In this document: in pieces, positions 40,489 through 64,000 of the stretch
How the letters are laid out: each line of letters opens with the position of its first letter
How positions within the stretch are numbered: the first letter of the stretch is position 1
IMG/VR virus record: IMGVR_UViG_3300007775_000001
Location: 32,001-96,000 of that record
DNA: 64,000 nucleotides
Direction: 5' to 3' (one strand)
Source of the DNA: a virus
Position numbers and translations under genes: made by a program
The notes under the pieces: generated by a model
Database searches by the model: none
Told to the model about the DNA's origin: nothing
Seen by the model: only the letters and a program-made list of their open reading frames with translations

Positions 40489-40491
40489 TTT

Positions 40492-40567: not shown

Positions 40568-40572
40568 TACAC

Positions 40573-40646: not shown

Positions 40647-40666
40647 CTTTCAAAAGGAGATTGACC

Positions 40667-40879: not shown

Positions 40880-40941
40880 CTTCCTCTTCAGGAACAGTTG
40901 CAAGACTTGAAAGAGAAGCTGATAGAGGAGATGAAGATCAT

Positions 40942-41013
40942 TGCTCCGTAGCTCAGGGGTAGAGCGGTGGTTTTACAAGCCGCTGGTCGTAGGTTCGAAT
41001 CCTACCGGGGCAA
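40942..41013 (+). tRNA. tRNA-Val(TAC)
   Basis: GTGGT-TTTACAA-GCCGC. Confidence 0.9.
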
Positions 41014-41029
41014 CTAGGTTGTGCAATCA

Positions 41030-41103
41030 GGGCTGGTAGCTCAATCGGTCAGAGCGGCTGACTCATAATCAGAAGGCTGCTGGTTCGAGTCCAGCCCAGC
41101 CCA
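41030..41103 (+). tRNA. tRNA-Ile2/Met(CAT)
   Basis: Loop CTCATAA; GGGCT acceptor suggests Ile2. Confidence 0.88.
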
Positions 41104-41106
41104 TAT

Positions 41107-41180
41107 TGGACAGTAGCTCAGTCGGTTAGAGCGCGATCCTGATACGGTCGAGGTCGAAGGTTCGATTCCTTCCTGTCCAA
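41107..41180 (+). tRNA. tRNA-Ile(GAT)
   Basis: CGATC-CTGATAC-GGTCG. Confidence 0.92.
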
Positions 41181-41257
41181 CTGACGATCCGATTTGGTAG
41201 CGTTGATGCTCCATAGACGTTCTGGGTCGAGATCAGTTGTACTTTAATATGGAGCAT

Positions 41258-41377
41258 GATGGTGGCGTATCAACGCATGCGGTGAAGCCGTGCGAGTAAC
41301 TGTTGGCGCGCATGACAGGAATCGACGGAAGAAACTGCCGTGGCGAGTCCCCGGAGTGATAACCGGGCGTCACCATC
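41258..41377 (+). ncRNA. candidate multi-branch structured RNA (~120 nt)
   Basis: GATGGTGGCG/CGTCACCATC closing helix enclosing four hairpins. Confidence 0.5.
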
Positions 41378-41381
41378 ATCT

Positions 41382-41454
41382 GTGGATGTAGCTCAATCGG
41401 CAGAGCGTCACGTTGCCAACGTGAAGGTTGTGGGATCGTTGCCCATCATCCACT
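41382..41454 (+). tRNA. tRNA-Gly(GCC)
   Basis: TCACG-TTGCCAA-CGTGA; atypical T-loop ATCGTTG. Confidence 0.88.
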
Positions 41455-41459
41455 TGCAC

Positions 41460-41532
41460 TGTCCTGTAGCTTAGTCGGTAGAGCGAGTGCCTGTTAAGCA
41501 CTTTGTCGTTGGTTCGAGCCCAACCAGGACAG
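41460..41532 (+). tRNA. tRNA-Asn(GTT)
   Basis: AGTGC-CTGTTAA-GCACT. Confidence 0.92.
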
Positions 41533-41554
41533 CTAAATCTAAAAGAGACCAACC

Positions 41555-42226
41555 ATGACCATGCGGGACTGTGACATTCATGCGGCAATCGAAGCCGGTG
41601 AGCTTTCAATTGATCCGTACGATCCGGATTCCGTAGGGCCTGCATCAATCGATCTGACTCTGAGTGTTTATTTCATGAGGGTGGATGGTCAGGGTACGGG
41701 TGGGGTGATCAGAATGGATCAACCCATCGAGTACGAGAAGTTTACTCGCCAGCGTGTGATTATCCCTCCGAAGTCCTTCATTCTTGCTAGTACCATCGAG
41801 CGTGTTACTCTTCCCGCTGATATCTGTGCAAAGGTCGAGGGTCGATCATCTATCGGTCGTATGGGTCTGTTTGTACAGAATGCTGGATGGGTTGATCCTG
41901 GTTGGGATGGGTGTCTGACTCTGGAACTGTACAACGCCAACGAGTTCCCCATCGAGATCGTTGCTGGTCGCCGGATTTGTCAATTGGTGTTGGATCGTAT
42001 GACCGGCCCGGTTGACAAGCCCTATGCTGGAAAGTACAAGGGCGATGGATCGGTAGCAGGTAGTCGTATCTACAAGGATTGGGAAGCGTTGCTTGATGAC
42101 TGCGAAATCTGCAATGGAGAGTTAGGCGGGGTCAAGGGAAATGAGAACGTCATTCATGGCAAGAAGGTCTGTGACTACTGTTATGCGAAGATGATGCGAG
42201 GAGAGATTCTGTACCCCGAAGGTTGA
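41555..42226 (+). CDS. dcd: dCTP deaminase
   Basis: PASIDLTL; EGRSSIGRMG; AGWVDPGWDG; RICQL; YAGKY. Confidence 0.93.
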   Translation: MTMRDCDIHAAIEAGELSIDPYDPDSVGPASIDLTLSVYFMRVDGQGTGGVIRMDQPIEYEKFTRQRVIIPPKSFILASTIERVTLPADICAKVEGRSSIGRMGLFVQNAGWVDPGWDGCLTLELYNANEFPIEIVAGRRICQLVLDRMTGPVDKPYAGKYKGDGSVAGSRIYKDWEALLDDCEICNGELGGVKGNENVIHGKKVCDYCYAKMMRGEILYPEG

Positions 42227-42233
42227 CAAATCT

Positions 42234-42314
42234 GCCCGCGTGGTGGAATCTGGTAGACACAACAGGCTCAAACCCTGTGGCTTCGGCGTCCCGGTTCGAA
42301 TCCGGGCGCGGGTA
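42234..42314 (+). tRNA. tRNA-Leu(CAA)
   Basis: ACAGG-CTCAAAC-CCTGT. Confidence 0.92.
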
Positions 42315-42394
42315 TTTTTTTGGCTTGAGTTGAGAGAATTGTCCGTCAATGTCAGAGAACGTTGATACATCAGGATACACCAAGAGGAATCACG

Positions 42395-49290: not shown

Positions 49291-49737
49291 ATGTCTTCCT
49301 ATCTTCCTCCTGCGAGAGAACGGTTGCGGAATCTTGTGGCAACGTGTGTAAGGCATGGTGACTTCACACTGAGAAGTGGTCAGAAGAGCGATACGTTCAT
49401 TGATCTTGAGGAGGTGTCTAGCACTTCATTGTTCATGATTCTCTTTCTGGATGTGCTCAGGGAGATCGTGCGAGGCGATGTGTATGACACCTTCATTGGC
49501 CCGTCGAAGGGTGCTGATCCTCTCGTCTATGTTGGACGAGAGGGTATCAGGAACAGGCGGGGGACAAGAGCGATTGTGTTGGAAGACGTGTTGACAACGG
49601 GTGGATCGGTGCTTCGTTGTATCGAAGAGTCCGGAATGACCCCTGTGCGGATTGTTTCAGTTGTGGACAGAGGGTGTTCGGTTGAGCTACCCGCTCCCTA
49701 TACCCCAATCCTGTCTATTGGCGAAATTTCTACGTAG
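49291..49737 (+). CDS. orotate-PRTase-like phosphoribosyltransferase
   Basis: GDFTLRSGQKSDTFID; VLEDVLTTGGS PRPP-binding motif. Confidence 0.8.
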   Translation: MSSYLPPARERLRNLVATCVRHGDFTLRSGQKSDTFIDLEEVSSTSLFMILFLDVLREIVRGDVYDTFIGPSKGADPLVYVGREGIRNRRGTRAIVLEDVLTTGGSVLRCIEESGMTPVRIVSVVDRGCSVELPAPYTPILSIGEIST

Positions 49738-49740
49738 AAA
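49727..49740. repeat. dispersed palindrome copy 6
   Basis: TTTCTACGTAGAAA, overlaps the TAG stop. Confidence 0.88.
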
Positions 49741-49755
49741 CCGGAGTCTTGTAAA

Positions 49756-50010
49756 ATGGCGCGCGGGAATGTGGTCTGGTTCGATATCCAGAAGGGTTTT
49801 GGATTCATCACAGACGAGGCTCAAGGGGACGATGTATTTGTCCACTACTCGAAGATCGAGGGGCCAGAAGGTGAGTTCAAATATCTCGATGCTGGAGACC
49901 TTGTGGAGTTCGAGCGGTTTGAGGTGGACAGAGGTAATGGCCTGAAGAAACCTCAAGCGAAGAACGTAAAGCTTGTCAGCCGCCGCGAAACCACAAAGGG
50001 CGACAAGTGA
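49756..50010 (+). CDS. cold-shock domain protein
   Basis: WF..KGFGFI (RNP1); DVFVHYS (RNP2). Confidence 0.93.
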
Positions 50011-50702
50011 GATCAGAGATCGTGAAGTGGATTCGGATTGTTGTTTTCAGGACGGTGAAGGGAAAGGGGTTGATCAATCTTGACATTGACAACCTCATCT
50101 CCGCCGGATATCTGGGTTACGCTCAGGCGTTGAAGAACTACGATGAGCGTAAGAAGGTCAAGTTCAAGACCTTTGCTGAGTATCGCATCAAAGGCGCGGT
50201 ACTTGACGAGGTTCGACGTGTGATCGGTGACGAGCGGTGTAAGACGGAAAGGCCAGTTAGGGTCAATGATGTCGATTTCGAGATGATCATTGATCCTCGT
50301 GACTATGGTTGTGAGTTCGAGATCGATTTCGAGAAGTTCATGGATGCGTTGCCGATGACTGTCCGTGAGAAGAACATTCTCCGATCACGCATTCAGGGTA
50401 TGAGCCTGAAGGAGATCGGACAGCAGTTTAGGTTCAGCGAATCCCGTGCTTCTCAGATTCTCTATAGCATCCGTGTGAAGGCTGCACCAACGTTCGAGCG
50501 ATTTTTTGGAATCAAGGTGGTGGTTGCACCAAGATTTCGCAAGTATCGGCGTACCTCGTCCGATAATGGAGTGAGGAGATTCCCGTGGAATCTGGCGTTT
50601 GCCGATATGTGTCGGCGCAACAGGGTGGGGCGAATCATTTCAATTCGGTCGCACCAATTCCCAATCCAACCTCTCCCTTGGCTTAGAGCGAGCGGTCAAT
50701 GA
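50007..50702 (+). CDS. RNA polymerase sigma factor (FliA/WhiG-like)
   Basis: [24 protein letters not shown] (region 2); [14 protein letters not shown] (region 4). Confidence 0.85.
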
Positions 50703-52567
50703 AGCTGACCTTGGACGATTACGCCGCTGTGTTGGATGACGTTGTCAAAGCGGCTTCCAAGAGTTCGGGACGCAAGACATTCGAAGATTTTGAAGAAGAG
50801 ATCGGTAAGTCTCTAACCTTCAATCCGCTTGCTCCCACAGAGATGACTCCTGAAGTTGTTGCGAGAGAGGGTATTTACTCTCCCTATGCACAGGCTCCAG
50901 AAGGCGGGTTTGTACCGCATACCGCTGAGCACTGGATGGGGATGGGCAAAGACCCCGATGACTATCGCAACGTTCACCAGATTTATGAGGAAGCTGGTGC
51001 CAAACAGCCTTCTCTCGATAGCCTGAGACACATGTTCGTGCAAGCTATCGAAGACACTGATCGCGCTGGCCGAAGTTTCTCGTTCCTGTCGCGTTCTATC
51101 AAGCCGACTGAATGTGAAATGATCGTGAAGGGTATTCCTATGCCGTCCAAGGGTGGCGGCATGAAGGATATGGGGATGCCTGTGGGAACGATTCATCGGT
51201 TCAGTGATGGTAAGCAGTATCGGAAAGAAGCTCCTGGCAAGTGGGTTCCGGTGTCAGCCGGTGCGAAGCCGGGTGGAAAGGAAGACGCTACTCAGTCAGG
51301 ACACGTTGAGATCGAGCGACATGCGATGATCACTCGTATTCGACAGGAGATGGATCGTCGTACCAAAGCGGCTGCTGACCAGAAGCAGTTGGAAGGTCGT
51401 ATGAAGCAGACGGCCAAGAAGTATGCGACCAAACAGACTGAAGCGGCTGGGATCAAGTCCCCGGTAGATCAGCTACCGAAAGACAAGGACAAGCCTGGAA
51501 ACTTCGATCTGTTGGAAGGAGCGGACGCGGCGAAGAAGATTTACTTCATCGAGGGCTCGAAGGTCAAGATGGATCACGTTCAACAGTTCTTGAAGGAGTT
51601 CAGTCAGGACTTCAAGGACATCGATTCGAACGGTCAGAATTCGAAGTTCCGTGAAGACATGATGAGCAATGGGGCGTTGTATTATACATCCCGGCTCAAG
51701 GGGCCTGATTCTCTACTGAAGAAGATGCAGAGCAAGTATCTCGACCGCTCTCTTAACACGGTGACTGACGCGATTGGTGCGAGAGCGTTGGCAGGTAGTC
51801 TGGAAGATCAGAAGCGGCTCTTCACGTTCTTCAAGTCTCAGCATGAGTTGGTCGAAGAGGAAGACTTCGCTGAGCAGGGGCGTCCCGATGGATATCGGGC
51901 GATCCATTGTCTGTTCCGGACAAGTTCCGGAAAGATCGGTGAGTTTCAGTTCAAGACGATCAATCAACAGCTTTACTCTGGGTATTTCCATGACACGGTT
52001 TACAAGGGTAGTAAAGCTATTCAGGACGATCCAGAGGTAGCGAAATTTCAGAGAGATGTGTCGGACTATCTGCACAGGCTTGATTCTGGTCAGGAACAGT
52101 TCGATATCAATCGCGCTCCAAAGGCTCCAAAGCAACTTGTGGCTGCGAAGTACAAGGACGAGAAGGGTAAGGAGCAGACGGCTGGAGAGTTTCCTTGGGA
52201 AAACGTTCGGACTAAGAATGTGGGTGACTATCTGTACAAGGCAGATGACGAGTCTCAGAGTGTGAAGTATTTTCTGGTGTTGCGCGATAAGAAAGGCAAC
52301 ACGGTTGGAACCAAGAGCTACAACAGCCTGGAGGCTGCGCAGAAAGAACAGACACGTCTTCTCAATCAGAAGAACTATGGCGATCTTCCTATTGCTCAGG
52401 CTACGAGCGAGAAGGAGTTGTTCGCCACCTTCCATGAGTACAGACCACGGGTCGGCTCACAGGTTGACGATCAGAGCAAAGACAAAAGCCCTGCCAAGTA
52501 CACAAGGGGTTCAAAAACGACCCCTCAGAAGCGGAAATTTGGGAGAGACCAAAATGGCTCACGATGA
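50699..52567 (+). CDS. modular head-region protein with RelA/SpoT synthetase domain
   Basis: RLKGPDSLLKK; DAIGAR; GYRAIH; EFQFKT; HDTVYK. Confidence 0.82.
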   Translation: MKLTLDDYAAVLDDVVKAASKSSGRKTFEDFEEEIGKSLTFNPLAPTEMTPEVVAREGIYSPYAQAPEGGFVPHTAEHWMGMGKDPDDYRNVHQIYEEAGAKQPSLDSLRHMFVQAIEDTDRAGRSFSFLSRSIKPTECEMIVKGIPMPSKGGGMKDMGMPVGTIHRFSDGKQYRKEAPGKWVPVSAGAKPGGKEDATQSGHVEIERHAMITRIRQEMDRRTKAAADQKQLEGRMKQTAKKYATKQTEAAGIKSPVDQLPKDKDKPGNFDLLEGADAAKKIYFIEGSKVKMDHVQQFLKEFSQDFKDIDSNGQNSKFREDMMSNGALYYTSRLKGPDSLLKKMQSKYLDRSLNTVTDAIGARALAGSLEDQKRLFTFFKSQHELVEEEDFAEQGRPDGYRAIHCLFRTSSGKIGEFQFKTINQQLYSGYFHDTVYKGSKAIQDDPEVAKFQRDVSDYLHRLDSGQEQFDINRAPKAPKQLVAAKYKDEKGKEQTAGEFPWENVRTKNVGDYLYKADDESQSVKYFLVLRDKKGNTVGTKSYNSLEAAQKEQTRLLNQKNYGDLPIAQATSEKELFATFHEYRPRVGSQVDDQSKDKSPAKYTRGSKTTPQKRKFGRDQNGSR

Positions 52568-55500
52568 CCTGTTGGCGAAAGCTGGCATTCGGGTCGGCAA
52601 TCCAGCGGAGCGGCGTTTGATCAACGATGAGCCTTCTCATCGATTTGTGGTCAAGGGCTTCAAGAATAGAGGAAGCGTCTCTCGTGCTGGTTCTCAGTCC
52701 AGCCCCCGCGAGAATTTGCTTCGAAGTCTGGGCATTCCGGACGAGGGTGCTCTTGAGAAGGCTACTCTGTACGGGAACGATGGTGATCTGGAGTACGTTC
52801 CTGATACGTACACGGGTCAGGATGTGTATCATCAAGACCCGTACAACGAGGTTCAGGTGACACGTCAGGAAGTGCTCGATACGCATGGTGAGCATTTTCA
52901 CAGCGATATCGATCCAGATGTGGAGCGCATTTTGAGTGAAGTTACCGAAGCGGGAACACACTTCGACTACACTCGTCAGTTCGGTCGTTCGATGGGTGCC
53001 TTCGATGGTGACGATGATGGTGATGACAACACAGAAGGTAAAGAGGAAGAAGAGAAGTCGAAGCTCAAGGCCAAGGATGTCAAGAAAGCTAGAAGAAGTG
53101 GCCCTGGTTCCCGTGGTGGAAGGGTAATTGGTCATACTCGTTCTGGCAAACCGATCTATGACAACAGTGCGAAAAATCACAGTGGATTCACAAAAGAAGA
53201 TCATGCCGATGCTCGTGATCTTCATACCTCTATCCATGAAAAGATGCTCGAAAGAGTGATGCATGGTGGAGAGTTTCCATCTGATTCGGCCATACTGAGC
53301 ACAAAGGCCAAAGATTATCATGCTCGTTTGGCAAAATCTGAATCAGACGATGAAGAAGAAAGCGACGAGGAGCCAGATGATGATGAAGACGATCAGGAGA
53401 AGTCTCTGTCTGGCATTTTGGATGATCTGATCAAGGGAGAGGGTGAAGGTTCTCGTGGTGGCAAAGTGATTGGTCATACATCGAGTGGGAAACCAATCTA
53501 TATCCACGAGCCGAATTTGGGTACTTCTAGTGCTGGTGGTATCCATGGAAAGAATTATAAGGGGTGGAATTGGAAAGATCATGAAGAAGCGTATGCTGCG
53601 CATTCTGCCGCTGCTAATTCTCTCGTACAGAAGCATGGTGGGTATCCAAAAGGTGATGATGCAAAGACTTATGTGCAGCATGCTCACAACAAGGATGCAC
53701 ATTACTTTTGGGCAAAAAAGACTGGTCATCCTGAATTGAACAAAAGCCTGGGAAAGTCTAGTGCCGGGGAGGGTTCCAAGGGTGGTCAGGTGATCGGCCA
53801 TACCCGCTCTGGCAAGCCGATCTATGCTCACGATTCAGCGATCTATGCCCATGGCACAGGCGCTTTCAGTGGGTACAGCAAGGGTGATCACTTTGATGCC
53901 TACACGCGCCATTCAAACGATCTGAAGTACAAACGTGGTCGTAGTGGGAAGAAGAACTTCTTGTCCGCGATGAAGCTCCATTCGCAGGCTTACTACGCTG
54001 CGAAGAGCGAGCGTGATCCAGACCTTCCAGACTTTTTGAAGTCGAAGAGTGGCGAGGGCTCTCGTGGTGGCAAGGTGATTGGTCACACACGGTCTGGCAA
54101 GCCGGTCTATGAGGGTAAGGCGGCGTCTAAGTATTCTGATTTTTCACGTCAGGATCACAAAGATGCTGCTGCCCAACACATGCGTCATTGGCATGATGAT
54201 GACTCAGAGAGTGCGGACGGGAGTGATCAAATTTCGGTCGATCATGATCGATTGTCTTTGACTCCAGAGCAGTTGAAGAATCGTGATGCCAAGCGCCGTG
54301 GTGTTCTTGGCAAAAAGTCTGTTTCTGTTCTGGACGATTTGGTCAAAGCTGTAACTGGCGAGGGCTCCCGTGGTGGTGTGGTTGTGGGTCATACATCGAG
54401 TGGCAAACCCATCTATCAAGGTGAGACTCATTCGACACGGATTCACACTACGACTGGCGAAGAGACTTCCCATGTGAATTCGTACATCCAGCATGCGGGT
54501 GATGAGAAACCGTATGGTGGTGAGAACTACCACGTTTTCTATCAACGCAAGGGTGCTCAAACCCAAGGCGACAATGAGACTGATGCGGATCGGGATTACG
54601 TTGGGTATGTGATCCGCCACAAAGACGAGGGCATATGGTCTGGTCACCCTGAGATCACGAGCATGAGTGCTTACAAGCAGGCGAAGAACTTCAAGACCAG
54701 AGGCGAAGCTGAACACCATATCCTGAGCACCTATAAACGGTATCAGGAAGCGTCGAAGCCGAAAGATCAAAAAGCCGCTAGCGTCCAGGAGGCGAACGAT
54801 CTGTACAAGGCTTTGATGGATATCTCGTTGAACAAAGCCACCGATGCCCAAGAAGACAAGGTGCATCAGGTGATGCGCGAATTCAAAGAAGGCACGCTTC
54901 GTTCGGGGAGCAAGACTGGCCCGAAGGTCAAGAACCGGAAGCAGGCGATTGCCATTGCCATGAATCAGTCTGGGCAGTCGAACAAGTCTGACGATGAGGC
55001 GAGCGATCTTCTCAAGAGCAGAATCTTCCCCATCGGTACAGTTCATACGTTCAGTGATGGCAAGCAGTACAAGAAGGTCGCTAACAACGAGTGGCACCCT
55101 GTTAAGGGAGAAGGCCCACGTCGATATGACTACGCCGCTGCTGTTGACCACAACAGCAAGATCGAGGTTGGTCAACATGTCCGTGTAAATTGGACGGCTG
55201 GGAGTTTCGGTCACTACACGGGCAAGGGCACCGTGACCAAAGTCAATGCCAAATCTGTAGCGGTGGCATTGGATGAACCCGTTGCTGATCAAAGTGGCCT
55301 TGGCGGAAGTGGCTATCCCGCTGGTCGTCGAATTGTTGTTCCACGGGCTGACATGTTCAGTGGTGCAAACTCCAAATGGGCATGGCACAACGGAGTTTTC
55401 CCGGTTCATGGTGAGGGCAAGAAGTCGAGTATCGATGAATTGCTCGATCTTGTGAAAGCTGGCTCATCGAAAGAAGTTGCGCCAACTTCTACACCAACAA

Positions 55501-56039
55501 GAAGGACTGTTCCTTCCGCGCGCAACTCGTTCATCAAAGCGGCTGGCCCTGGAGGAGTCCTGTTCGATTTTGGTCATCTGACCGGGAACCTTGCTGCCGA
55601 CAGATATTCCGAGCTTGCCAATCAGCATGCGGAGCCGCAACAGGCTGCAATTCTGAAGTCTCAGAAAGCTGAGTACGATCAGGCTCTCGTGGAGTATGTC
55701 ACTACTGGTCGTACGAGAGAACAGGATGTTTCTCCACAACAGGGTGCAGATGTTCAGAAGTCAGATGAGCAACATGGTGCTCAAACGGCCGATGTGTCAA
55801 AGCCGGTCTTCATGGGCGATTTTCGGACTCAGTTCGAGAGCAAACAGGCTCGTGTTGGTAGTGAGGTCGTGAAGGCTCAGTCTGAGACCGACCAAGCTGT
55901 GATCGAGATGTTTGGTAAGAACCTGGGTGATGCTCCAACCGATATGACCATGGCTGGGAAGACCCCGGTTGTTCTCGATCTGGCTTCGGGAGCGGCAATC
56001 GACATGCAGAGCGGCGAGCAGATTCAACCTGCTGAGTAA
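52554..56039 (+). CDS. large repeat-containing modular head-region protein
   Basis: Five GxGSRGG.V.GHT.SGKP.Y repeats, DUF6496-like segment, SH3/KOW-like segment; ATG 52554 after GGAG. Confidence 0.8.
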   Translation: MAHDDLLAKAGIRVGNPAERRLINDEPSHRFVVKGFKNRGSVSRAGSQSSPRENLLRSLGIPDEGALEKATLYGNDGDLEYVPDTYTGQDVYHQDPYNEVQVTRQEVLDTHGEHFHSDIDPDVERILSEVTEAGTHFDYTRQFGRSMGAFDGDDDGDDNTEGKEEEEKSKLKAKDVKKARRSGPGSRGGRVIGHTRSGKPIYDNSAKNHSGFTKEDHADARDLHTSIHEKMLERVMHGGEFPSDSAILSTKAKDYHARLAKSESDDEEESDEEPDDDEDDQEKSLSGILDDLIKGEGEGSRGGKVIGHTSSGKPIYIHEPNLGTSSAGGIHGKNYKGWNWKDHEEAYAAHSAAANSLVQKHGGYPKGDDAKTYVQHAHNKDAHYFWAKKTGHPELNKSLGKSSAGEGSKGGQVIGHTRSGKPIYAHDSAIYAHGTGAFSGYSKGDHFDAYTRHSNDLKYKRGRSGKKNFLSAMKLHSQAYYAAKSERDPDLPDFLKSKSGEGSRGGKVIGHTRSGKPVYEGKAASKYSDFSRQDHKDAAAQHMRHWHDDDSESADGSDQISVDHDRLSLTPEQLKNRDAKRRGVLGKKSVSVLDDLVKAVTGEGSRGGVVVGHTSSGKPIYQGETHSTRIHTTTGEETSHVNSYIQHAGDEKPYGGENYHVFYQRKGAQTQGDNETDADRDYVGYVIRHKDEGIWSGHPEITSMSAYKQAKNFKTRGEAEHHILSTYKRYQEASKPKDQKAASVQEANDLYKALMDISLNKATDAQEDKVHQVMREFKEGTLRSGSKTGPKVKNRKQAIAIAMNQSGQSNKSDDEASDLLKSRIFPIGTVHTFSDGKQYKKVANNEWHPVKGEGPRRYDYAAAVDHNSKIEVGQHVRVNWTAGSFGHYTGKGTVTKVNAKSVAVALDEPVADQSGLGGSGYPAGRRIVVPRADMFSGANSKWAWHNGVFPVHGEGKKSSIDELLDLVKAGSSKEVAPTSTPTRRTVPSARNSFIKAAGPGGVLFDFGHLTGNLAADRYSELANQHAEPQQAAILKSQKAEYDQALVEYVTTGRTREQDVSPQQGADVQKSDEQHGAQTADVSKPVFMGDFRTQFESKQARVGSEVVKAQSETDQAVIEMFGKNLGDAPTDMTMAGKTPVVLDLASGAAIDMQSGEQIQPAE

Positions 56040-56041
56040 CC

Positions 56042-57799
56042 ATGGGAATCATTCAGAAAGCTGGTCGATATATCCTGGGCGAAATCGCTGGGATGAGACC
56101 CGATATGGTCAAGGCGGGTCTCATGTCTCCGGATTCGTCTGCCTACGATCCAAAGACATCCCTTGTCGATCCTCTCTCGTTTCAATCGCTCAGTGCATTT
56201 GGGTATCGAGAGAAGTTCAGTCTTCTGGATTACTCCCGGTTGCGGGCGATCAGCTTGAATGATTCGGTGGTTGCTGCTGTGATTCAAACCCGGTTGAATC
56301 AGGTGGCTGGGTTTGCCACGTTGCAGGCCGACAAGCATACGGGTGGTTTCACGATCCGTATGCGAGACAGGGACAAGAAGCCAAACTCTGCTGCTCAAAA
56401 GCGTATTAAGGAATTCCAGGAGTTCATGATCAACTGTGGTGTGCCTGAGCAGTTCGAAGACACACCGGAGCGTAAGCGTCGTGACAATTTCGACACCTTC
56501 TTGCGCAAGTTGACACGGGATTCTTTGACGTATGATCAAGCCAACTTTGAGATAACGCCAAGAAGGAATGGGATGCCGTACGAGTTCGGTGCGGTAGATG
56601 CCTCTACTATTCGGCTCATCCCGGACAAGAAGGAATTGATCGATCAGTTCAACAACGAGCGTGCAGCACAGTATGCTCTTCAGACGATGAAGGATACGAT
56701 CAAGGTTGCTGAGAATTCTGGCAAGGTCTTCAAGCCCCGTCATCCGAAGTATGTCCAGGTGATCAATGGGATCATCAAGCACGACTACGATGAATGGGAG
56801 ATGGCGTTTGGTGTACGCAACCCCCGGACAGATGTAATGTCGTATGGGTATGGATTCAGTGAGATCGAAATGCTGGTGACGATCATCACTGCACACATGA
56901 ATGCGGAGACCTACAACCGGAAGTTCTTCACACAGGGGACAAACGCCAAGGGAATTCTCCACTTCGAGGGTCAGGTTCCGCGTGATCAACTTCAGGAGTT
57001 CCGGCACCAATTCCACATGCAGGCGGCTGGAATCGCCAACTCCTTTAAGACCCCGATCATTGCGACGGCAAAGGAAACTAAGCTTCAGTGGATGGACTTC
57101 CAGAAGTCAAACCGCGAGATGGAATTTGGGCGGTGGTTGGAATACTGCATCAAGGTTGTCTGCTCTGTTTACCAGATCGATCCGATTGAAATCGGATTCG
57201 ACATCTCTCGAATGGGTTCGGGTGCATCACAGGGCGGTGGGTATGGGATGGGTGCCAGTGCTGGTGACCCGACTTCCAAAATTTCGAGTTCTCAGGACAA
57301 GGGACTCAAACCATTGCTGCGCTTCCTCCAATCGCTGATCAATGACTACATCGTTTACCGATTGGATGCGGACTTCGAGTTCGAATTTGTTGGTCTCAAC
57401 GCGGACTCTGATAGCGAAGCTCTGGACAAGATTGGCAAAGAGGTCAAGACATTCAAAACGATCAACGAGGTCAGGGCGGAGCAGGATAGACCTGCTTTGC
57501 CTCCTCTTGATCAGATTGAGTCTCCTGGTGATCTGCTTCTCGATAGCACTCTTCTTACTATTTGGGGACAAGAGAGACAGGCAAAACAACAGCAAGACAT
57601 GATGGCTCAGCAAGGGCAGGACGGTGGTGATGGGAATCCCGTTGGCGAAGATGAGCAGCCTGATTACCAGAACATGAGTGATGAAGACCTTCAGCAACAG
57701 TACAAGAAGTTGCAGGAAGGCGGCGGTGGTGGTGGAAGCCTTTCCCAAGGTGGCGTCAACAAATCGATGCCCCGGTTGACTCGCACACTGAGACTGTGA
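56042..57799 (+). CDS. portal protein
   Basis: RDSLTYDQ..VDASTIR; YGFSEIE..YNRKFF; NREMEF..YQIDPIEIG; SQDKGLKPLL; TINEVR. Confidence 0.93.
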   Translation: MGIIQKAGRYILGEIAGMRPDMVKAGLMSPDSSAYDPKTSLVDPLSFQSLSAFGYREKFSLLDYSRLRAISLNDSVVAAVIQTRLNQVAGFATLQADKHTGGFTIRMRDRDKKPNSAAQKRIKEFQEFMINCGVPEQFEDTPERKRRDNFDTFLRKLTRDSLTYDQANFEITPRRNGMPYEFGAVDASTIRLIPDKKELIDQFNNERAAQYALQTMKDTIKVAENSGKVFKPRHPKYVQVINGIIKHDYDEWEMAFGVRNPRTDVMSYGYGFSEIEMLVTIITAHMNAETYNRKFFTQGTNAKGILHFEGQVPRDQLQEFRHQFHMQAAGIANSFKTPIIATAKETKLQWMDFQKSNREMEFGRWLEYCIKVVCSVYQIDPIEIGFDISRMGSGASQGGGYGMGASAGDPTSKISSSQDKGLKPLLRFLQSLINDYIVYRLDADFEFEFVGLNADSDSEALDKIGKEVKTFKTINEVRAEQDRPALPPLDQIESPGDLLLDSTLLTIWGQERQAKQQQDMMAQQGQDGGDGNPVGEDEQPDYQNMSDEDLQQQYKKLQEGGGGGGSLSQGGVNKSMPRLTRTLRL

Positions 57800-58365
57800 T
57801 GAAGAAAATCATTCGCGATGCATTCTCGTATGTTGAGTACAAGGGGAAGACTGCGCCGCAAGAGCGATGCAGTACTTGCTTCTATGGGACGTTTCCAGGA
57901 AGTAAGTGCTCGTTGTACGAGGCTATCAATGGGTTGATGCCCGAAGCATGGAATCTCGAAGATACCGTGAATCCAAACGGAGCATGCAACGCTTTTACTG
58001 ACAAGGAAGTGACAAAGGCAGTGATTAGACGTGATCCGATTTTTGTGCTGAAGGCTGGTGGCGAGGGTTCTCGTGGTGGCAAGGTGATTGGTCACACATC
58101 GAGTGGAAAGCCGATTTATGGAGATAGTCATTTGAGAGGTACGCGGGAATGGTCTGAGCGTGACCATTTTGAAGCGTATCACGTTCATGGTAAGGCGGAT
58201 AGACCGGGTTCTTCGCTTGAAGACGCTAGACTCCATTCTGCCGCAAGGTCTTATCATCTTAGTGAGGGTAGTAAGGTTGGTGGAATCAAGAATGATGGGC
58301 CACATAAAAGACATCCTTGGTTCACATCAAGCGGTCAACGGAAACGGTTTATGAGCAGATCATGA
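57796..58365 (+). CDS. HiPIP-like 4-Cys domain fused to the GEGSRGG repeat module
   Basis: CSTC..C..VNPNGACNAF then GEGSRGGKVIGHTSSGKPIY. Confidence 0.65.
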   Translation: MMKKIIRDAFSYVEYKGKTAPQERCSTCFYGTFPGSKCSLYEAINGLMPEAWNLEDTVNPNGACNAFTDKEVTKAVIRRDPIFVLKAGGEGSRGGKVIGHTSSGKPIYGDSHLRGTREWSERDHFEAYHVHGKADRPGSSLEDARLHSAARSYHLSEGSKVGGIKNDGPHKRHPWFTSSGQRKRFMSRS

Positions 58366-58589
58366 TCGAAGTCAAGATCAGTGCGGATACTCAAGAGGAG
58401 TTCGATGCCAAACGTGCCGATCTTGCCAAGGCTGTTATCGGCCCGAAGGCTATCACCCCTCGAAAGGCTTATCATCGGTATCAGAACGACTTGCTGGACT
58501 ATGTGAACGCACTATACCTCAAGCGTATAGCGCAAATGAAGCGAGAGATCGATGTTGTGATCCGGCGCGCCCAGGCGCGAATCCAATGA
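58362..58589 (+). CDS. hypothetical protein
   Basis: ATGA coupling. Confidence 0.6.
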   Translation: MIEVKISADTQEEFDAKRADLAKAVIGPKAITPRKAYHRYQNDLLDYVNALYLKRIAQMKREIDVVIRRAQARIQ

Positions 58590-58819
58590 AGATTCTGCTG
58601 ATGATCACTGTGGTGGCGATGTCGGGTGTCAAAGCTCCTGCAATCAGCTTCAAGAGCATGTGTGATGCGATTGATCCTGAAGCTATCACGCTCATCACAA
58701 TTCGGCCTTTCAGGGACGCACAGAATGGGACTGTTATTCCAGGCGTTGTCTACCAGTGTGTGCGGATCACGGAAGGTGAAGAGAAGGGCACCAAACCTCA
58801 AAGGAAGCAGAAGGCATGA
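58586..58819 (+). CDS. small protein with hydrophobic N-terminus
   Basis: ATGA coupling on both sides. Confidence 0.5.
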   Translation: MKILLMITVVAMSGVKAPAISFKSMCDAIDPEAITLITIRPFRDAQNGTVIPGVVYQCVRITEGEEKGTKPQRKQKA

Positions 58820-61800
58820 GCAGTTTCTACGTAGAAACTGAATCTGTTTCCAAGGGTGGTCGAGAGGTTGCTTCCGTTGCGGTGATGAGCGGGTCGAATC
58901 TCTTGATGGGCCGCCGCAAGGATTCTGGCGAGTGGACTTTGCCGGGCGGTGGATTGGAACCGGGCGAGAAGCCCGAAGAAGGGGCCAAGAGGGAGCTTTT
59001 TGAGGAGGCAGGGGTCAGGGTAGGGCAGCTCCGATATCTGGGCTCCAGGCGCGTTAAGGGCGTTCCTGATAACGATCTGATCACGGTGCATGCCTTCCTG
59101 GTGCATCAACATGGGAAGGCAACTGTCCGAAACGATCCTGACAAGGAAGTGAGCCGGTGGTCATGGATCGATGTGAGCAACGGTCTTCCGAAAGCGATTG
59201 AAGATGAACTTCACTCCCCACGGAACGTGGTTCTCATGATGATGGGTATTCAGAAAGAGCCAAAACCGTCCCTGGTGATTCGATCTGACCTGGGGCCTAT
59301 CGACCTATCCAAGATGTATGGAGGAGGGGTTGGAGAGGCTTCTGACAGCGAATTTGGTACCTATTCTGGCGGTGGTGGGAAAAAGCCGGGTGGCCCTGGT
59401 TCTCGCGGTGGAAAGGTGATCGGACGTACACGGTCTGGGAAACCGATCTACGAGAGCGCATCCCATTATGGTCACAACAGCTTCTTTGCGGAAGAGCATC
59501 TTCAGGCTGCTGAAGCGCACAAGCATCATGCAGGGAGTTTGCTTGAACACATGAAGGGCAACCTTCATGGGAATACTTCGAATTTCAAGACGCTGATGGG
59601 CAAGATTGAAGCCCACATGACTGAGGCCGATGAGCATCGGAAGAAAGCTGGAACCGCTCCAAAAGCTCCCCGCAAGAAGGCCGAGCCGGCCAAGAAGGAG
59701 TATCGCTATGCAGCTTCCGTATTCGATGATTCGGATATCATCAAGAGTCTGGAGGCCATAGTTAAGCATGTCGAAAAGCCCGGTTCTCGTGGTGGTCATA
59801 TCATCGCCTGGAGAGATGGCGAACCGATTTATGGAAAGGAGCAGCCAAAAGTTAAACGTAAGGTGGCTAGTGCTACAGTCAAATACACAACAGCATTGAG
59901 TCCTAGTGGGAAGAAAGAAAACGTGGCTGTTCATTTGAATCCATCCGCTGATGATTTGGCTGAACATATTCCAGCCGGTGCAAGAGCGTGGCTTCTGCCG
60001 GGTGGAAATTTGTATGTCATGGACAACAAGAATATTTTGCATCTTTCTGCTATCGAGTCTGTGATGAATTCTGGATTCATCACCAAGCAGCAATTCAGAG
60101 ATATCATCCCGCCAAAGAGTTTCTTGAGTGATACCGATCCTTCTGAGGGTATCATGTTGGAGAGAGTTGGTAATTCCAATATGTTTGTGTTGGGTGAATC
60201 TTATGAAGGCGGTGTTCCGGAGGGTGATGAGCTATCTGACATCAAGGATTCGATCAGAGCTTTCAAGAAAAATTCAAAAGGCGTGATCATCCGGCCAAGT
60301 AGTATTAGAGATTTCAATGTCGAAGACTACTTGCATATGAGCTTCGATCAAGAAGAATTTGATCTGTGGAAGGCGGATGATAAGATGATTTCCACTCCCC
60401 AGAAGGGGATGGTTAAAAAGCATGAACATCTTGTCCGCGTCCCGAAGACACCAAGCCATATGAGCTTTTTTGTGAAGGCTGCTCCAGGAGAAGTCCGCCC
60501 TGGTCACAAGTATTTGCGACGGTACAGACGGAATGATCAGTGGGTATACGTCTATCGCGAGCCAGAAGGTGATACCCGTGAATTGAACGAGGAGGCTATG
60601 TCGCTTCTTCACCATCTTGCGGCGCGTGGTGACGAAGATGCCACGTATCTTCTGAACAACCTGAAAGAGAAAGCGGCTGACGAGGTTCTTGATCGTGAGT
60701 TGAATGGCACGGAACGTCATGATGTTGTGCAGATGATTCGGAACAGTCTCGATCAGAATGTGTTCCGATATTTGAATCAGTATACTACGAGCCCGTTCCA
60801 TCAAACGCTCACACGGAATCGTGTGACGTTGGATTCCGTGATGTCTCAGGTTCAGGGACAGACATTGCGCGGTCTGCTGACAAGTTATCACAACGCCCTG
60901 CGAGATGTGGATCGGGCTCATTCGACATTGCAGATCACGAGTTCTCAGAACACTGATGCTCGCGGTGCGGGTGGTTATGCAAATCTTGCGTACAACAGAG
61001 CCTTGCAGGCGTTGGAGACTCGTACTGCGTTCTTGCCAGCGCGCTATTCCGAAGTCCATCGGAGAGGTACACGGAGCGGTTCGAATGATCTTGAACCGTT
61101 TGTGAACACTCAAGAGATACGAGAAGCCGCTGAGCGCCAAGAGCGAGAGCGTCAAGCTGCCGAAGCTGAACGCGAACGACAAGCCGCTGAAGAACGCGAG
61201 CAGATCATGGGTGAGTATCGCACCAAGATGACCGGTGCGATCATCGATCATCTTGATCCTAGCGTTCATGTTTCTCCTGACAAGATTGCGACCATCCATC
61301 GTGCTCTGAAGAACATGTTCGGTGGCAATGTTCCTACACGGGAACAGTGGCCTTACGACTTTTCACAGTATGGGTACAGGGTCAAGATTTCTGATGTGGC
61401 CGCTGACAACAATACCATCTCGTTCGCACTGAGCGCGACCAACGCTTCTGGAGAGCAAGTCACTCGTTCATGGCGTCGGAATTGGCGGAACAACGGTGGT
61501 CATCCAGCGATCTACAACGCGCTCCTGGAGACCTATCCATCCGCTCGTGGGACTGGCCCTGAGATTGGCGAGTTGATCAACAAGGCTCAGAACAAGTTGA
61601 TGCATGAGACCGATCCTGACCATGGTGTGATTGGAGTCTTCGCTGCAATGACAGTGGGTGGCTACAATTGGGCCAATCAGGGCTTCAGATTTGATCGGGC
61701 AAGTGGTGATCGTGGTGTGGTTTTGATGCAGTTTAGGAACTTCCTGGCTGAGCATGGGATCAGATTGACAGACGAGGAACTGAGTCACTTCAAGGAGCCA

Positions 61801-62685
61801 TGCCATTTTGCCGCTTTCCATGATGGCAAGTTCTACGAGGTGCATACTTCGGACGATCTCGCACTGAAGCCCGATCAGGTTGCTCATGGAACATTGGACG
61901 GGAAACCTGGAGGTAGACCGCTTACTCCTTCTGAGATTAGCGCAGGTCGCACCAATCGAATGCTTGTTCACCTTGGCAAGATGTTTCTCTTGGGCAAGTC
62001 ATGGCACGGTATCTCTAGGGCTTCGGAGCAGAATGACCGCAACGAGGCGTGGCGGTTCTTCCAGATTTATCGTCGCATGAAGGTGGATTCCTGGAAGGTA
62101 CTCAATGACCGATACAAGGCTGCTGTTGAAGCTGTACAGCAGGGCCAGCGCACTATGACTTCAGAGCAGCGAGCGGCTGCGATTTCAAGCTACAACCCGT
62201 ACGTGCGGAGAGGAAGTAGGCGTCGAAGATCGTCAACTATTCGAAGACCGAATCGATTCAGGGATTGGACTCCAACCCAACAGAGAACTTGGATTGATCG
62301 GAATCGCGGTCAGTTGTCGGATGCTCAATACAATTCGGCATGGGAAGTGATGAGAAGTGCGAGACATCGTGTTGACATGGCGAGTCGTGCTCTTCAGACG
62401 TTTGTGAATGATGGTATTGTGACCGCGCCTTCGGCACCTCTCAATGAGATGAACGAGACAGACCTTCGACACTTTTTCCATGGTGAGTATAATTACTCAA
62501 CGCGGACACAGGTTTCGCAAGGTGTCATGAATGAGCTTCGAGCGCATTATGGTGAAGGCGATACAGCAATCTACAATCGCCATTTCCGGGAACTCAGGTT
62601 CTATCAGGACGATTTGATCAATGCTCGTCGTGCTCGTATTGCCGCTGAAGCGCGGCCAGCCGGACAACAAAGAGCAACAGGATAA
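58816..62685 (+). CDS. polyvalent head-region protein: Nudix + repeats + GNAT-like domain
   Basis: Nudix box GGLEPGEKPEEGAKRELFEEAG; two GSRGG repeats; HKYLRR motif; GGYNWANQGF. Confidence 0.8.
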   Translation: MSSFYVETESVSKGGREVASVAVMSGSNLLMGRRKDSGEWTLPGGGLEPGEKPEEGAKRELFEEAGVRVGQLRYLGSRRVKGVPDNDLITVHAFLVHQHGKATVRNDPDKEVSRWSWIDVSNGLPKAIEDELHSPRNVVLMMMGIQKEPKPSLVIRSDLGPIDLSKMYGGGVGEASDSEFGTYSGGGGKKPGGPGSRGGKVIGRTRSGKPIYESASHYGHNSFFAEEHLQAAEAHKHHAGSLLEHMKGNLHGNTSNFKTLMGKIEAHMTEADEHRKKAGTAPKAPRKKAEPAKKEYRYAASVFDDSDIIKSLEAIVKHVEKPGSRGGHIIAWRDGEPIYGKEQPKVKRKVASATVKYTTALSPSGKKENVAVHLNPSADDLAEHIPAGARAWLLPGGNLYVMDNKNILHLSAIESVMNSGFITKQQFRDIIPPKSFLSDTDPSEGIMLERVGNSNMFVLGESYEGGVPEGDELSDIKDSIRAFKKNSKGVIIRPSSIRDFNVEDYLHMSFDQEEFDLWKADDKMISTPQKGMVKKHEHLVRVPKTPSHMSFFVKAAPGEVRPGHKYLRRYRRNDQWVYVYREPEGDTRELNEEAMSLLHHLAARGDEDATYLLNNLKEKAADEVLDRELNGTERHDVVQMIRNSLDQNVFRYLNQYTTSPFHQTLTRNRVTLDSVMSQVQGQTLRGLLTSYHNALRDVDRAHSTLQITSSQNTDARGAGGYANLAYNRALQALETRTAFLPARYSEVHRRGTRSGSNDLEPFVNTQEIREAAERQERERQAAEAERERQAAEEREQIMGEYRTKMTGAIIDHLDPSVHVSPDKIATIHRALKNMFGGNVPTREQWPYDFSQYGYRVKISDVAADNNTISFALSATNASGEQVTRSWRRNWRNNGGHPAIYNALLETYPSARGTGPEIGELINKAQNKLMHETDPDHGVIGVFAAMTVGGYNWANQGFRFDRASGDRGVVLMQFRNFLAEHGIRLTDEELSHFKEPCHFAAFHDGKFYEVHTSDDLALKPDQVAHGTLDGKPGGRPLTPSEISAGRTNRMLVHLGKMFLLGKSWHGISRASEQNDRNEAWRFFQIYRRMKVDSWKVLNDRYKAAVEAVQQGQRTMTSEQRAAAISSYNPYVRRGSRRRRSSTIRRPNRFRDWTPTQQRTWIDRNRGQLSDAQYNSAWEVMRSARHRVDMASRALQTFVNDGIVTAPSAPLNEMNETDLRHFFHGEYNYSTRTQVSQGVMNELRAHYGEGDTAIYNRHFRELRFYQDDLINARRARIAAEARPAGQQRATG
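58821..58840. repeat. dispersed palindrome copy 7
   Basis: CAGTTTCTACGTAGAAACTG within the first codons of the ORF. Confidence 0.9.
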
Positions 62686-62687
62686 TC

Positions 62688-62891
62688 ATGCCAAAAGACA
62701 TCAAGCCAATCGAGTCGGTCAAAGACCGACTCGTTGATGTGAATGACATTGACAGCGAGCTTGACATCGATCCGTATTTCGGTGAACAGGTCGCTGACGC
62801 GGCGCGGGAATCGTTCAAGGAGTCCAATCCTGGTCTGTATGCTGTACTGACCAAATACCGGAATCATGGCACTGACAGCAAGGGAACTTGA
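62688..62891 (+). CDS. small acidic protein
   Basis: AGGA RBS; 67 aa directly after the polyvalent protein. Confidence 0.6.
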   Translation: MPKDIKPIESVKDRLVDVNDIDSELDIDPYFGEQVADAARESFKESNPGLYAVLTKYRNHGTDSKGT

Positions 62892-63903
62892 GGAGATTCG
62901 CGATATCGTCCGTAGGCATTATCTTGCTCTGACGCATGATGCCACGGGTAACATTTCGCTGACTCCAGCGGAACTTGCTGAGCTTCGCCGTGCTGGTCTG
63001 ATCACTGGTCGTGAACCGGTGGTTATGCAGAATGCGTACGAGTTCGGCAAGGTGGCCGTTGCTGTGGGGCCGATTGCGGCCAGAGCCATGACGGTTGAAC
63101 AAGTGCGTCTGGCGATTTCGAAAATGAAGCCTCTGACTGAAGTCGAGAGGGCCTCATTGGATTTCGCTCGTGCAAGTGCTGGGCAGTACATCAAGGGCAT
63201 TATGGACATGACCCTGAAGGATGCCACTACTTCTGCAATGCGTGCTTCTGGTGCGGCATTGAGGGCTGTTCAGGAGGGTGTTTCAGAGGCAGTGGCAGAC
63301 CGCAAGACGATCAGCGAGCTTCGCACTGAATTGTTTAACACCATCGACAACCGGTCTCGTGACTGGACACGTATCGCTCACACAGAACTGACCAACGCGA
63401 TCCAGAACGGTATCTACAATGAGATCAGGGATACCTCTCCGGCGGGGGCCGATCAGGTGGTGTTCAAGAGTCCGAATCCAGATGCCTGCAAATACTGCAA
63501 GGCACTCTATCTAAAGCCTGATGGAATTACACCACGGGTATTCAAGCTGAGAGACCTGGAGCCGTCAAACTTCGGCAGACGAGCGCGTGATTGGAAGCCT
63601 GTTGTTGGTGCAACTCATCCATGGTGCAACTGCCAGATTCACATCGTTCCGGATGGGTACGACTTTGTCACGAGGCCAGTGGTTCAAGAACAGTTTGACG
63701 AGGGCGGGAAGACGTACAAGCAGGGTCAACGATTGAGCGAGACAGAGTATCGTACACTTCGGTCTTCGCATGCCGACAAGATAGGGAAAGGAGCGATTCT
63801 TGAGTTCACTGGTACGACGGCTGCACCAGAGATCATGAGAAGCATGTTGGACAGTATCCCTATCCATTCGGTTGACGAGGAAGAACCGATCTGCGAGTGC
63901 TGA
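62866..63903 (+). CDS. MuF/SPP1-gp7-like head morphogenesis (minor capsid) protein
   Basis: RIAHTE..ACKYC..HPWCNC. Confidence 0.85.
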   Translation: MALTARELEEIRDIVRRHYLALTHDATGNISLTPAELAELRRAGLITGREPVVMQNAYEFGKVAVAVGPIAARAMTVEQVRLAISKMKPLTEVERASLDFARASAGQYIKGIMDMTLKDATTSAMRASGAALRAVQEGVSEAVADRKTISELRTELFNTIDNRSRDWTRIAHTELTNAIQNGIYNEIRDTSPAGADQVVFKSPNPDACKYCKALYLKPDGITPRVFKLRDLEPSNFGRRARDWKPVVGATHPWCNCQIHIVPDGYDFVTRPVVQEQFDEGGKTYKQGQRLSETEYRTLRSSHADKIGKGAILEFTGTTAAPEIMRSMLDSIPIHSVDEEEPICEC

Positions 63904-63904
63904 G

Positions 63905-64000
63905 ATGCCAAGAGGAACCCACAAGTACATTCGACGCGAAGGCACTTCGGGCAACTATCGCTACTTCTATTCCGATGCTCAAGGTCGGGAGAAGCCAGCG
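63905..64000 (+). CDS. 5' part of protein starting with the HKYIRR motif (partial)
   Basis: MPRGTHKYIRREGTSGNYRYFYSD, open to window end. Confidence 0.65.
   Translation, partial: MPRGTHKYIRREGTSGNYRYFYSDAQGREKPA

Follow-up and report, generated by a model that had tools for sequence, protein, structure and literature searches.

The stretch of viral DNA analysed here, referred to as the window (64,000 nucleotides), corresponds to bases 32001-96000 of the 114,950-bp contig IMGVR_UViG_3300007775_000001. Four positions among its head genes, designated slots 1 to 4, encode large proteins that are probably polyvalent cargo located inside the head, processed there by the prohead protease and passed on with the DNA. 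Three modules (A, B and B′) recur in these proteins, a short motif found at the module boundaries and at the maturation site of the major capsid protein (MCP), homologous to that of SPO1-type phages, is strongly enriched in the head genes, and enzyme domains are swapped among relatives behind conserved leaders and modules. The + strand carries every gene of the 114,950-bp genome; coordinates are window positions unless marked as genome positions, gene names give protein lengths (g622 encodes 622 aa), and an arrow within a sequence marks a predicted cut. The head-module genes and their parts are as follows.

50699-52567, + strand: g622 (slot 1), 622 aa; leader, N-domain, module B, RelA/SpoT domain
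51176-51271, + strand: module B copy 1 (PVGTIHRFSDGKQYRKEAPGKWVPV); hidden Markov model (HMM) E-value 2.2e-18; DNA repeat D4
51689-52012, + strand: RelA/SpoT catalytic region (Pfam, PDB alignment)
52554-56039, + strand: g1161 (slot 2), 1161 aa
53085-54527, + strand: five module A units of g1161; HMM domain E-values 1e-22 to 2e-26
53085-53267, 53427-53618, 53751-53939, 54033-54209 and 54342-54527, + strand: module A cores in g1161
54852-54965, + strand: DUF6496 domain of g1161; SLNK↓A before, DLLK↓S after
55026-55121, + strand: module B copy 2 (PIGTVHTFSDGKQYKKVANNEWHPV); HMM E-value 4.9e-18
55422-56036, + strand: C-terminal segment of slot 2; LLDLVK↓A, SFIK↓AAGPGGVLFDFG..., VVK↓AQSETDQAVIEM
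56042-57799, + strand: SPO1-like portal; conserved predicted N-terminal site RPDMVK↓AG at residue 24
57796-58365, + strand: g189, 189 aa; four-Cys N-domain, FVLK↓AGGE, one module A unit (58042-58215)
58317-58819, + strand: two small open reading frames (ORFs), g90 and g77 (90 and 77 aa)
58816-62685, + strand: g1289 (slot 3), 1289 aa
between g1289 and g345, + strand: g67
62866-63903, + strand: g345, MuF-like minor head protein, 345 aa; conserved CxxC...HPWCxC
63905 to beyond the window end, + strand: g761 (slot 4), 761 aa in the genome; B′ directly after the Met (MPRGTHKYIRREGTSGNYRYFY)

A first-pass annotation of this DNA had described five ORFs (50699, 52554, 57796, 58816 and 63905) as flanking the portal and a MuF-like gene, an arrangement borne out by the coordinates and by the Pfam match of the portal. 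The protein encoded by g622 consists of a 17-aa leader ending in VLDDVVK↓A, a conserved N-domain (residues 18-144), the junction IVK↓G, module B and a small-alarmone-synthetase-like RelA/SpoT domain. The g1161 gene, whose ATG at 52554 is preceded by the ribosome-binding site GGGAGA, encodes a 9-aa leader (DDLLAK↓A), an acidic region, the five module A units, DUF6496, module B and a conserved C-terminal segment (~170 residues), which is the sole part of slot 2 kept in all relatives. In g1289, a Nudix domain (58870-59184) is followed by two module A units (59377-59562 and 59758-59949), an unassigned stretch, FFVK↓A with B′ (60502-60561), and a C-terminal domain (~61270-62205) conserved in 8 relatives.

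Shared modules and the motif at their boundaries

BLASTP between the slot proteins recovered shared modules at E-values of 1e-6 to 5e-14; these matches, the HMM searches and the B′ repeat agree with the first-pass view that three modules are common to the mosaic ORFs. Module A (consensus GEGSRGGKVIGHTxSGKPIY ... (F/Y)(S/T)xxDHxDAxxxH), which includes a His-rich helical hairpin, was found by HMM in exactly 8 copies in the whole genome (five in g1161, one in g189 and two in g1289), with cores that are just 62-81% identical at the DNA level. Exactly two copies of module B (PIGTxHxFSDGKQYxK....W.PV) were found by HMM (~1e-18), one each in g622 and g1161, while B′ (HKYxRR....W/YxYxY) is present in two copies, one inside g1289 and one directly after the start Met of g761. 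Modules A and B had no Pfam or NCBIfam match at permissive E-values, and none of the three modules matched a Pfam LPD family in the release searched.

An AlphaFold2 (AF2) model of the module A unit at 53436-53744, based on a 35-sequence alignment (predicted local distance difference test (pLDDT) 84.6; predicted template modelling score (pTM) 0.77), contains a β-hairpin (VIGHT/KPIY) and then a two-helix hairpin bearing the conserved His. Foldseek gave no match at E ≤ 0.001 for this fold and no PDB match was convincing; EncB/EncC half-ferritins and SMBP were rejected as module A folds, their scores (Z ~5) being at noise level and the VIA-align matches (Z ≤ 6.1) representing generic helical hairpins. 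The predicted units are ~100 aa long, basic (pI 9-10) and contain 6-10% His. A module A profile searched against 1.84 billion representatives detected 1,840 clusters at E ≤ 1e-3 and 1,049 at E ≤ 1e-10, in proteins of 170-3,753 aa with 2-8 copies, whose Pfam partners include NUDIX, Zeta_toxin, Ferritin, DUF5661, DUF6496, LPD1, InPase and Phage_Mu_F; a SPO1-like portal is located ≤8 kb from module A in 34 of 75 IMG/VR loci. No match was found by tblastn of a module A unit and g189 against GenBank phages, and module A turned up in no cultured phage. Small proteins (107-250 aa), often several paralogues, are encoded by many phages in which a ~35-aa leader (..QKAQ..IL.CYG....LEK↓GGE) precedes module A; for these other phage lineages, the leader is a candidate for a targeting propeptide. 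Clusters of such paralogues occur at IMG/VR loci L085, L092, L105, L120 and L123. Because module A is elsewhere a free-standing small protein behind a leader, it looks like a mature internal protein, that is, a payload or a carrier, rather than a short removable tag.

Predicted cuts fall 2-5 residues before modules A, B and B′, unless the module comes straight after the initiator Met; the modules would thus be retained as new N-termini, not removed like a T4 targeting peptide. The module A junctions read DDLIK↓GEGE-GSRGG, DFLK↓SKSGE-GSRGG, DDLVK↓AVTGE-GSRGG and FVLK↓AGGE-GSRGG, and h-x-K-[GAS] (h, hydrophobic) is found ≤9 residues upstream in 88% of 105 unique IMG/VR copies; no lineage dependence of the motif before module A was found, Lys being present in both groups. 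For module B, K↓[GA] stands a few residues before P(I/V)GT(I/V)H in 8/8 aligned slot 1 proteins. Among 41 unique copies of B′, all 26 internal ones have h-x-K-[GAS] ≤14 residues upstream, and the remaining 15 are no more than ~25 residues from the start of the protein, some directly after Met (MRS-HKY) and some after a short leader (e.g., EIDSDLFK↓ARS-HKY). Met-x-x-HKY and K↓[GAS]-x-x-HKY can thus replace each other, and no other observation from within the sequences argues more strongly for actual cleavage and for the importance of a free N-terminus beside the module.

Sites fitting [LIVFM][LIVMFN]K[ASG] were counted, with shuffled versions of each protein giving the expectation. In the head region there are 33 sites where 6.7 are expected (Poisson 3e-13), which upholds the earlier observation that h-h-K-[A/S/G] recurs at module boundaries, and the remaining ~29,000 residues of the proteome contain 31 (29.8 expected); g1161 has 11 strict sites (1.25 expected). 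Because the motif had been derived from the window phage, the count was repeated in 11 relatives, fetched through an alignment of g345. Enrichment was found there in the scaffold (41 sites vs 4.4 expected, 9-fold), the protease (21 vs 4.5, 5-fold) and the variable head-module proteins (125 vs 36.6, 3.4-fold); the MCP had 11 sites (4.6 expected) and the portal 13 (6.8). The controls were not enriched: terminase, cold-shock protein (CSP) and sigma factor together had 6 sites (5.5 expected), the tail genes 11 (13.6) and the MuF-like protein 1 (5.0). Position P4, which the regular expression left free, is Asp or Glu in 47% of 206 unique site contexts, giving the consensus [D/E]-[LVFI]-[LVIN]-K↓[A/S/G]. 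Sites are 3.3 times denser outside than inside Pfam domain envelopes. The new N-termini predicted from the motif are A18 and G145 in g622, A87 in g189, S311 and A555 in g1289, G295, S398, S497, A599, A762, S822 and A969 in g1161, A35 in the MCP and A25 in the portal.

In the MCP, the motif is located at residue 34 (ADLNK↓ALSAGYATDP), and among aligned relatives LNK is kept in 22/25 and the K↓AL junction in 25/25. The protease C-terminus repeats this site (DFAIK↓SLSAGYATSP; 66% identity over 32 residues), and a DhhK↓AG near residue 24 is conserved in the portal. Starting from the cleavage site, the C-terminal segment of the protease copies the N-terminal arm of the MCP (L001:5943-7418), as it does in SPO1; this mimicry may target the protease to the shell. 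The same MCP site is found in SPO1 and Nachito, whose scaffolds and proteases are rich in the motif; an 866-aa portal-adjacent protein of Nachito shows no enrichment and thus serves as a negative control. For phage 812, the PDB holds a 463-residue MCP precursor (5LII) and a 439-residue chain (9ROW/9ROX/9ROZ), a difference of 24 residues; the shorter chain starts at S25, right after DVVK, and S25 aligns with A35 of the window-phage MCP. We read S25 as the mature N-terminus of the phage 812 MCP, a reading taken from deposited chain lengths and not from a described experiment. These sequence comparisons support the view that the boundary motif behaves like a prohead-protease site.

Exchange of cargo and the enzyme domains involved

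Relatives with MCPs 66-72% identical share the gene order CSP, sigma factor, slot 1, slot 2, portal, g90, slot 3, MuF-like gene, slot 4, protease, scaffold and MCP. In slot 1, the leader (LD[DE]x[IV]xK↓[GAS]), the N-domain and module B are kept, and the g622 N-terminus, both of its K↓[GAS] sites and module B are found in 8 relatives. The C-terminal cargo of this slot varies: it is RelA/SpoT in the window phage and L017, S-adenosylmethionine (SAM) lyase in L016, SAM lyase plus Zeta toxin in L020, topoisomerase IB in L035, and nothing recognisable in four other relatives. Slot 3 usually has the layout Nudix, B′ and C-terminal domain, and instead contains a leader, module B, RelA/SpoT and SNF2 in L027, and SNF2, DUF5661 and DUF6321 in L023; in L029 the RelA/SpoT cargo is a separate gene after slot 4. 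LPD1 is a further domain found in slot 3 proteins of relatives. The same leaders and modules thus accompany different enzymes in relatives, which is the cargo swapping that the first-pass annotation had named as a check of its proposal. Across 46 variable proteins, Pfam identified NUDIX (8), RelA_SpoT (3), LPD1 (3), SNF2 (2), SAM lyase (2), Zeta (1) and Topo IB (1). Leaders whose removal is predicted from sequence are present in g622, g1161, the slot 4 proteins of relatives and the small module A proteins. At L011:3-2646 slot 3 is represented by two overlapping ORFs of 415 and 508 aa, with both module A units absent; a frameshift, a programmed shift or a sequencing error may account for the split. 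Contig L011 stops short of the portal, and a single-sequence portal pattern scan of IMG/VR gave no match.

Three of the domain labels proposed earlier (RelA/SpoT, Nudix and DUF6496) pass their Pfam cut-offs, and two (GNAT-like and HiPIP-like) stay at the level of atlas leads. RelA_SpoT (PF04607) matches residues 331-438 of g622 with 43.9 bits (cut-off 27; 3.4e-11), and this domain aligns with YjbM/RelQ in the PDB (1e-4), with GYRxxH and ExQxxT aligned. NUDIX (PF00293) matches g1289 with 70.3 bits (cut-off 21.1; 2e-19), and its Nudix box is intact (GGLEPGEKPEEGAKRELFEEAGV, fitting Gx5Ex7REUxEExGU). DUF6496 (PF20106) matches g1161 with 36-39 bits (cut-off 24; 8.9e-9 / 9.4e-10). The C-terminal domain of g1289 had no Pfam match to GNAT, and its profile gave nothing relevant among PDB sequences; the atlas lead is a feature score of 0.90 to a cluster with Acetyltransf_1 in 20% of members. 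The N-domain of g189 (57796-58053) has four Cys in a pattern (C-x2-C-x9-C-x26-C, ending in VNPNGACNAF) that resembles HiPIP cluster-binding motifs. Searches for HiPIP (PF01355) in residues 1-86 found no HMM or PDB-sequence support, and the weak structural lead from the atlas (TM 0.31-0.38 to a viral cluster, 12% of members with HIPIP) leaves the label unconfirmed; an iron-sulfur domain within a capsid would be unusual.

The MuF-like label of g345 holds at the level of fold and not of sequence profile. Phage_Mu_F (PF04233) and other Pfam and NCBIfam families were not matched up to E-values of 1-5, no PDB sequence match was found, and Foldseek against the PDB returned nothing. The AF2 model (pLDDT 75.8) matches BFVD models named 'minor capsid / head morphogenesis / MuF-like' (probability 0.9-1.0; E 1e-3 to 2e-2), the best BFVD matches being intein-bearing homologues (E 3e-11). 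The protein is 30-35% identical to Bacillus phage proteins, among them a Nachito homologue (30%) annotated as a minor capsid protein; a MuF-like fold for g345 is thus supported by the model, along with its position in the head module. Large insertions are present in the MuF-like homologues of L035 (9891-11747) and L029 (8357-9853) and in the protease of L020 (13275-14894); because the best BFVD matches of g345 are named Hint/intein, these insertions are probably inteins. A PDB sequence search with the protease gave nothing useful.

Proposed delivery with the DNA and the alternatives

If the slot proteins are delivered cargo, their precursors would co-assemble into the prohead beside the portal, the MuF-like protein and the scaffold. 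The prohead protease would then cut after Lys in [D/E]-h-h-K↓[A/S/G], the motif at which it would also remove the MCP N-terminus and dice the scaffold; the cuts would strip short N-terminal leaders and split the polyproteins into units, each starting with module A, B or B′. The products would stay inside the head and pass along with the DNA into the host, where they would act in takeover or counter-defence. The delivered set would comprise a RelQ-like enzyme of alarmone-synthetase type, a Nudix hydrolase, the DUF6496 piece, the four-Cys domain and ~8 basic, His-rich module A proteins of ~100 aa; packaging, injection, the targets of the enzymes and cleavage at sites other than that of the MCP are inferred.

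Several points weigh against this account. Dicing into ~100-aa pieces is also the fate of scaffolds that are expelled from the head; expulsion in this manner is the main rival to delivery. The sole experimental anchor for Lys at P1 is the deposited chain lengths of phage 812, and literature searches found no stated cleavage specificity for the prohead proteases of SPO1, A511, Twort, phage 812 or other SPO1-type phages. The motif also occurs within folded domains, where it is probably uncut (K379 in RelA/SpoT, K923 in the slot 3 C-terminal domain, and the protease fold), and since it always accompanies module A, a structural role there is not separable from one as a protease site. In addition, Pfam detected no LPD, SNF2 or MPTase hallmark in the window's own proteins.

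An extension of the delivery account, which we consider less likely than not, is that the protease acts as a 'decoder' whose cuts expose functionally required N-termini (GGE-GSRGG..., xx-PIGTxH..., xx-HKYxKR...), constituting a programmable delivery code; as DNA tethers or ejection signals, the exposed N-termini might bring any attached enzyme out of the capsid with the genome.

The first-pass annotation had proposed instead that modules A, B and B′ are T4-style tags, short, necessary and sufficient for capsid targeting, with the protease then freeing the cargo. The modules do recur on unrelated cargo, and in L027 the RelA/SpoT cargo has moved to another slot with its own leader and module B. 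We nevertheless consider such tags unlikely: the modules follow the predicted cuts and so would not be removed, module A is a folded ~100-aa domain that occurs five in a row as well as free-standing behind a separate conserved leader, relatives without module A keep the slots, and the positionally conserved leaders and slot ends are better targeting candidates. What survives of the load-then-remove picture is the protease-site-like motif and the cargo swapping; removable tags do not.

Alternatively, the large proteins could shape the prohead as an auxiliary scaffold or core and be diced and expelled, with no delivery to the host. With 11 sites, g1161 has a density similar to that seen in the scaffold, the proteins are encoded among morphogenesis genes, and slot ends are conserved. 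Yet intact Nudix and RelA/SpoT catalytic motifs make little sense in discarded material, anti-restriction-type cargo in relatives (SAM lyase, Zeta toxin, topoisomerase IB and SNF2) would be equally odd there, and motif sites avoid domain interiors, making an expelled core quite improbable in our estimate. Least credible, and very improbable, is that these are non-packaged proteins acting late in the cytoplasm, with D-h-h-K-[GAS] junctions as shuffling-prone linkers or helix caps: although junction sequences are common to copies at the DNA level, this would leave unexplained the 9-fold scaffold and 5-fold protease enrichment, the site at the MCP maturation point, the lack of enrichment in the other ~29,000 residues, and the interchange of Met-x-x-HKY and K↓[GAS]-x-x-HKY.

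Genome context and relation to known systems

An identical 124-bp overlap at the contig ends (genome 1-124 and 114827-114950) indicates that the assembly is circular or terminally redundant, and a tail sheath match in the genome identifies a myophage; megablast of the region against GenBank phages gave no match. The head module is Herelleviridae-like (SPO1-type), with homologous portal, protease, scaffold and MCP and the K↓[AS]xxxGY maturation site. The portal (Pfam Phage_portal, 2.5e-14) is ~40% identical to the portals of Bacillus phages CP-51 and SPO1, the MCP matches SPO1 gp6.1 with an E-value of 1.4e-82, the protease matches phrog_1028 (1.6e-47), and scaffold and MCP are likewise recognised. 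The portal C-terminus (57500-57799) has an acidic, Gln-rich tail with poly-Gly, and an extra motif site (GGVNK↓SMPRL) lies 11 residues before its end. The neighbouring genes are the following; past the window end, the order is a 149-aa ORF, protease, scaffold and MCP.

start 47809, + strand: TerL, upstream of the head genes
start 49291, + strand: phosphoribosyltransferase (PRTase)-like gene
start 49756, + strand: CSP
start 50007, + strand: sigma factor
genome 98950-99852 (L001:3950-4852): protease, just downstream of the window

The orotate-PRTase-like gene, CSP and FliA/WhiG-like sigma factor (49291-50702) are located between the terminase and the head genes, and the CSP-sigma pair keeps the same position in relatives, as g90 does after the portal. 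The window also includes 30 tRNA genes (164-427 and 35555-42315), most of them within a single ~7-kb cluster; for a phage of 115 kb this number is high.

Polyvalent proteins, as described by Iyer, Burroughs, Anand, de Souza and Aravind in 2017, list RelA/SpoT, SNF2, InPase and LPD domains, with NUDIX occurring with GNAT in InPase contexts; they are predicted to be packaged and injected, and autoprocessing by an embedded zincin-like metallopeptidase (MPTase) was proposed (PMC5512222). The window proteins are similarly large and multidomain, combine unrelated effector domains in one polypeptide (g1289, g1161 and g622) and have their genes in the head-morphogenesis region, next to portal or MuF genes. 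Polyvalent hallmarks occur in the same slots of relatives (LPD1 in 3 proteins, SNF2 in 2), and elsewhere module A is fused to LPD1, InPase and Phage_Mu_F. No peptidase domain was found in the window's proteins of this kind, and MPTase was found nowhere, relatives included; unlike in MPTase autoprocessing, the units appear to be bounded by the site motif of the prohead protease itself.

In T4, internal proteins and Alt carry a capsid targeting sequence cut by gp21 (cited in PMC10052503, PMC9026906). The system described here resembles that of T4 in its predicted short N-terminal leaders ending in a putative prohead-protease site (17 aa in g622, 9 aa in g1161) and in combining small basic internal proteins with enzymes that would be delivered with the DNA. 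It differs in its protease lineage, which matches phrog_1028 and SPO1 gp3.2-type proteases with Lys at P1 (Lys↓Ala/Ser/Gly) rather than the L/I-x-E of gp21, in its many-unit polyproteins, and in modules that would be retained at new N-termini. Giant phages (SPN3US, phiKZ and 201phi2-1) have ejection (E) proteins that are processed by the prohead protease, and in which many head-internal proteins and the portal lose propeptides at a shared motif, A-X-E (PMC10052503, PMC7411985). The propeptides are cut at more than one copy of the motif and there are paralogous families, features that the predicted system of the window phage resembles. The window phage differs from these in its 115-kb non-jumbo genome, SPO1-type head, P1 residue and enzymatic, slot-swapped cargo.

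MuF-fused polymorphic toxins have reportedly been described by Jamet and colleagues in 2017. Capsid-borne cargo is also known in the Dar proteins of P1 and the cargo proteins of crAss001 (PMC12810830, PMC10172136). As in these systems, anti-defence or toxin-type cargo is encoded beside MuF or portal genes; unlike MuF toxins, the MuF-like protein of the window phage has neither cargo nor cleavage motifs, the cargo being in separate adjacent genes. Herelleviridae (SPO1, phage 812/K and Nachito) share the K↓[AS]xxxGY maturation site and the protease C-terminus mimicking the MCP N-terminus; in contrast, portal, protease, scaffold and MCP stand side by side in SPO1, without any cargo slots, and the portal-adjacent protein of Nachito lacks the motif enrichment.

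By analogy, the system belongs with the polyvalent proteins and, in terms of function, also with those internal or ejection proteins that a protease processes in T4 and in the SPN3US/phiKZ group. The idea of injected cargo is already known, and the window system is probably a variant of it; what appears to be new is the lack of an embedded peptidase, the placing of modules where they would become new N-termini, and the layout of four fixed slots that surround the portal and a MuF-like protein free of cargo. If delivery is correct, the phage would possess an exchangeable injected 'toolkit' that needs no dedicated processing enzyme, with the capsid maturation protease and one short motif being re-used. 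A sequence rule in which [D/E]-h-h-K↓[A/S/G] precedes module A, B or B′ could then single out, among metagenomic phages, counter-defence enzymes that travel with the virion, for example SAM lyase, alarmone-synthetase-like enzymes, Nudix, Zeta toxin, topoisomerase IB and SNF2. Module A itself represents an abundant unannotated domain family (1,840 representative clusters), with no Pfam model in the release searched and no PDB fold match. Should the protease indeed act as a 'decoder', this would amount to a general protein-delivery code, with module A alone present in >1,800 protein clusters of uncultured phages.

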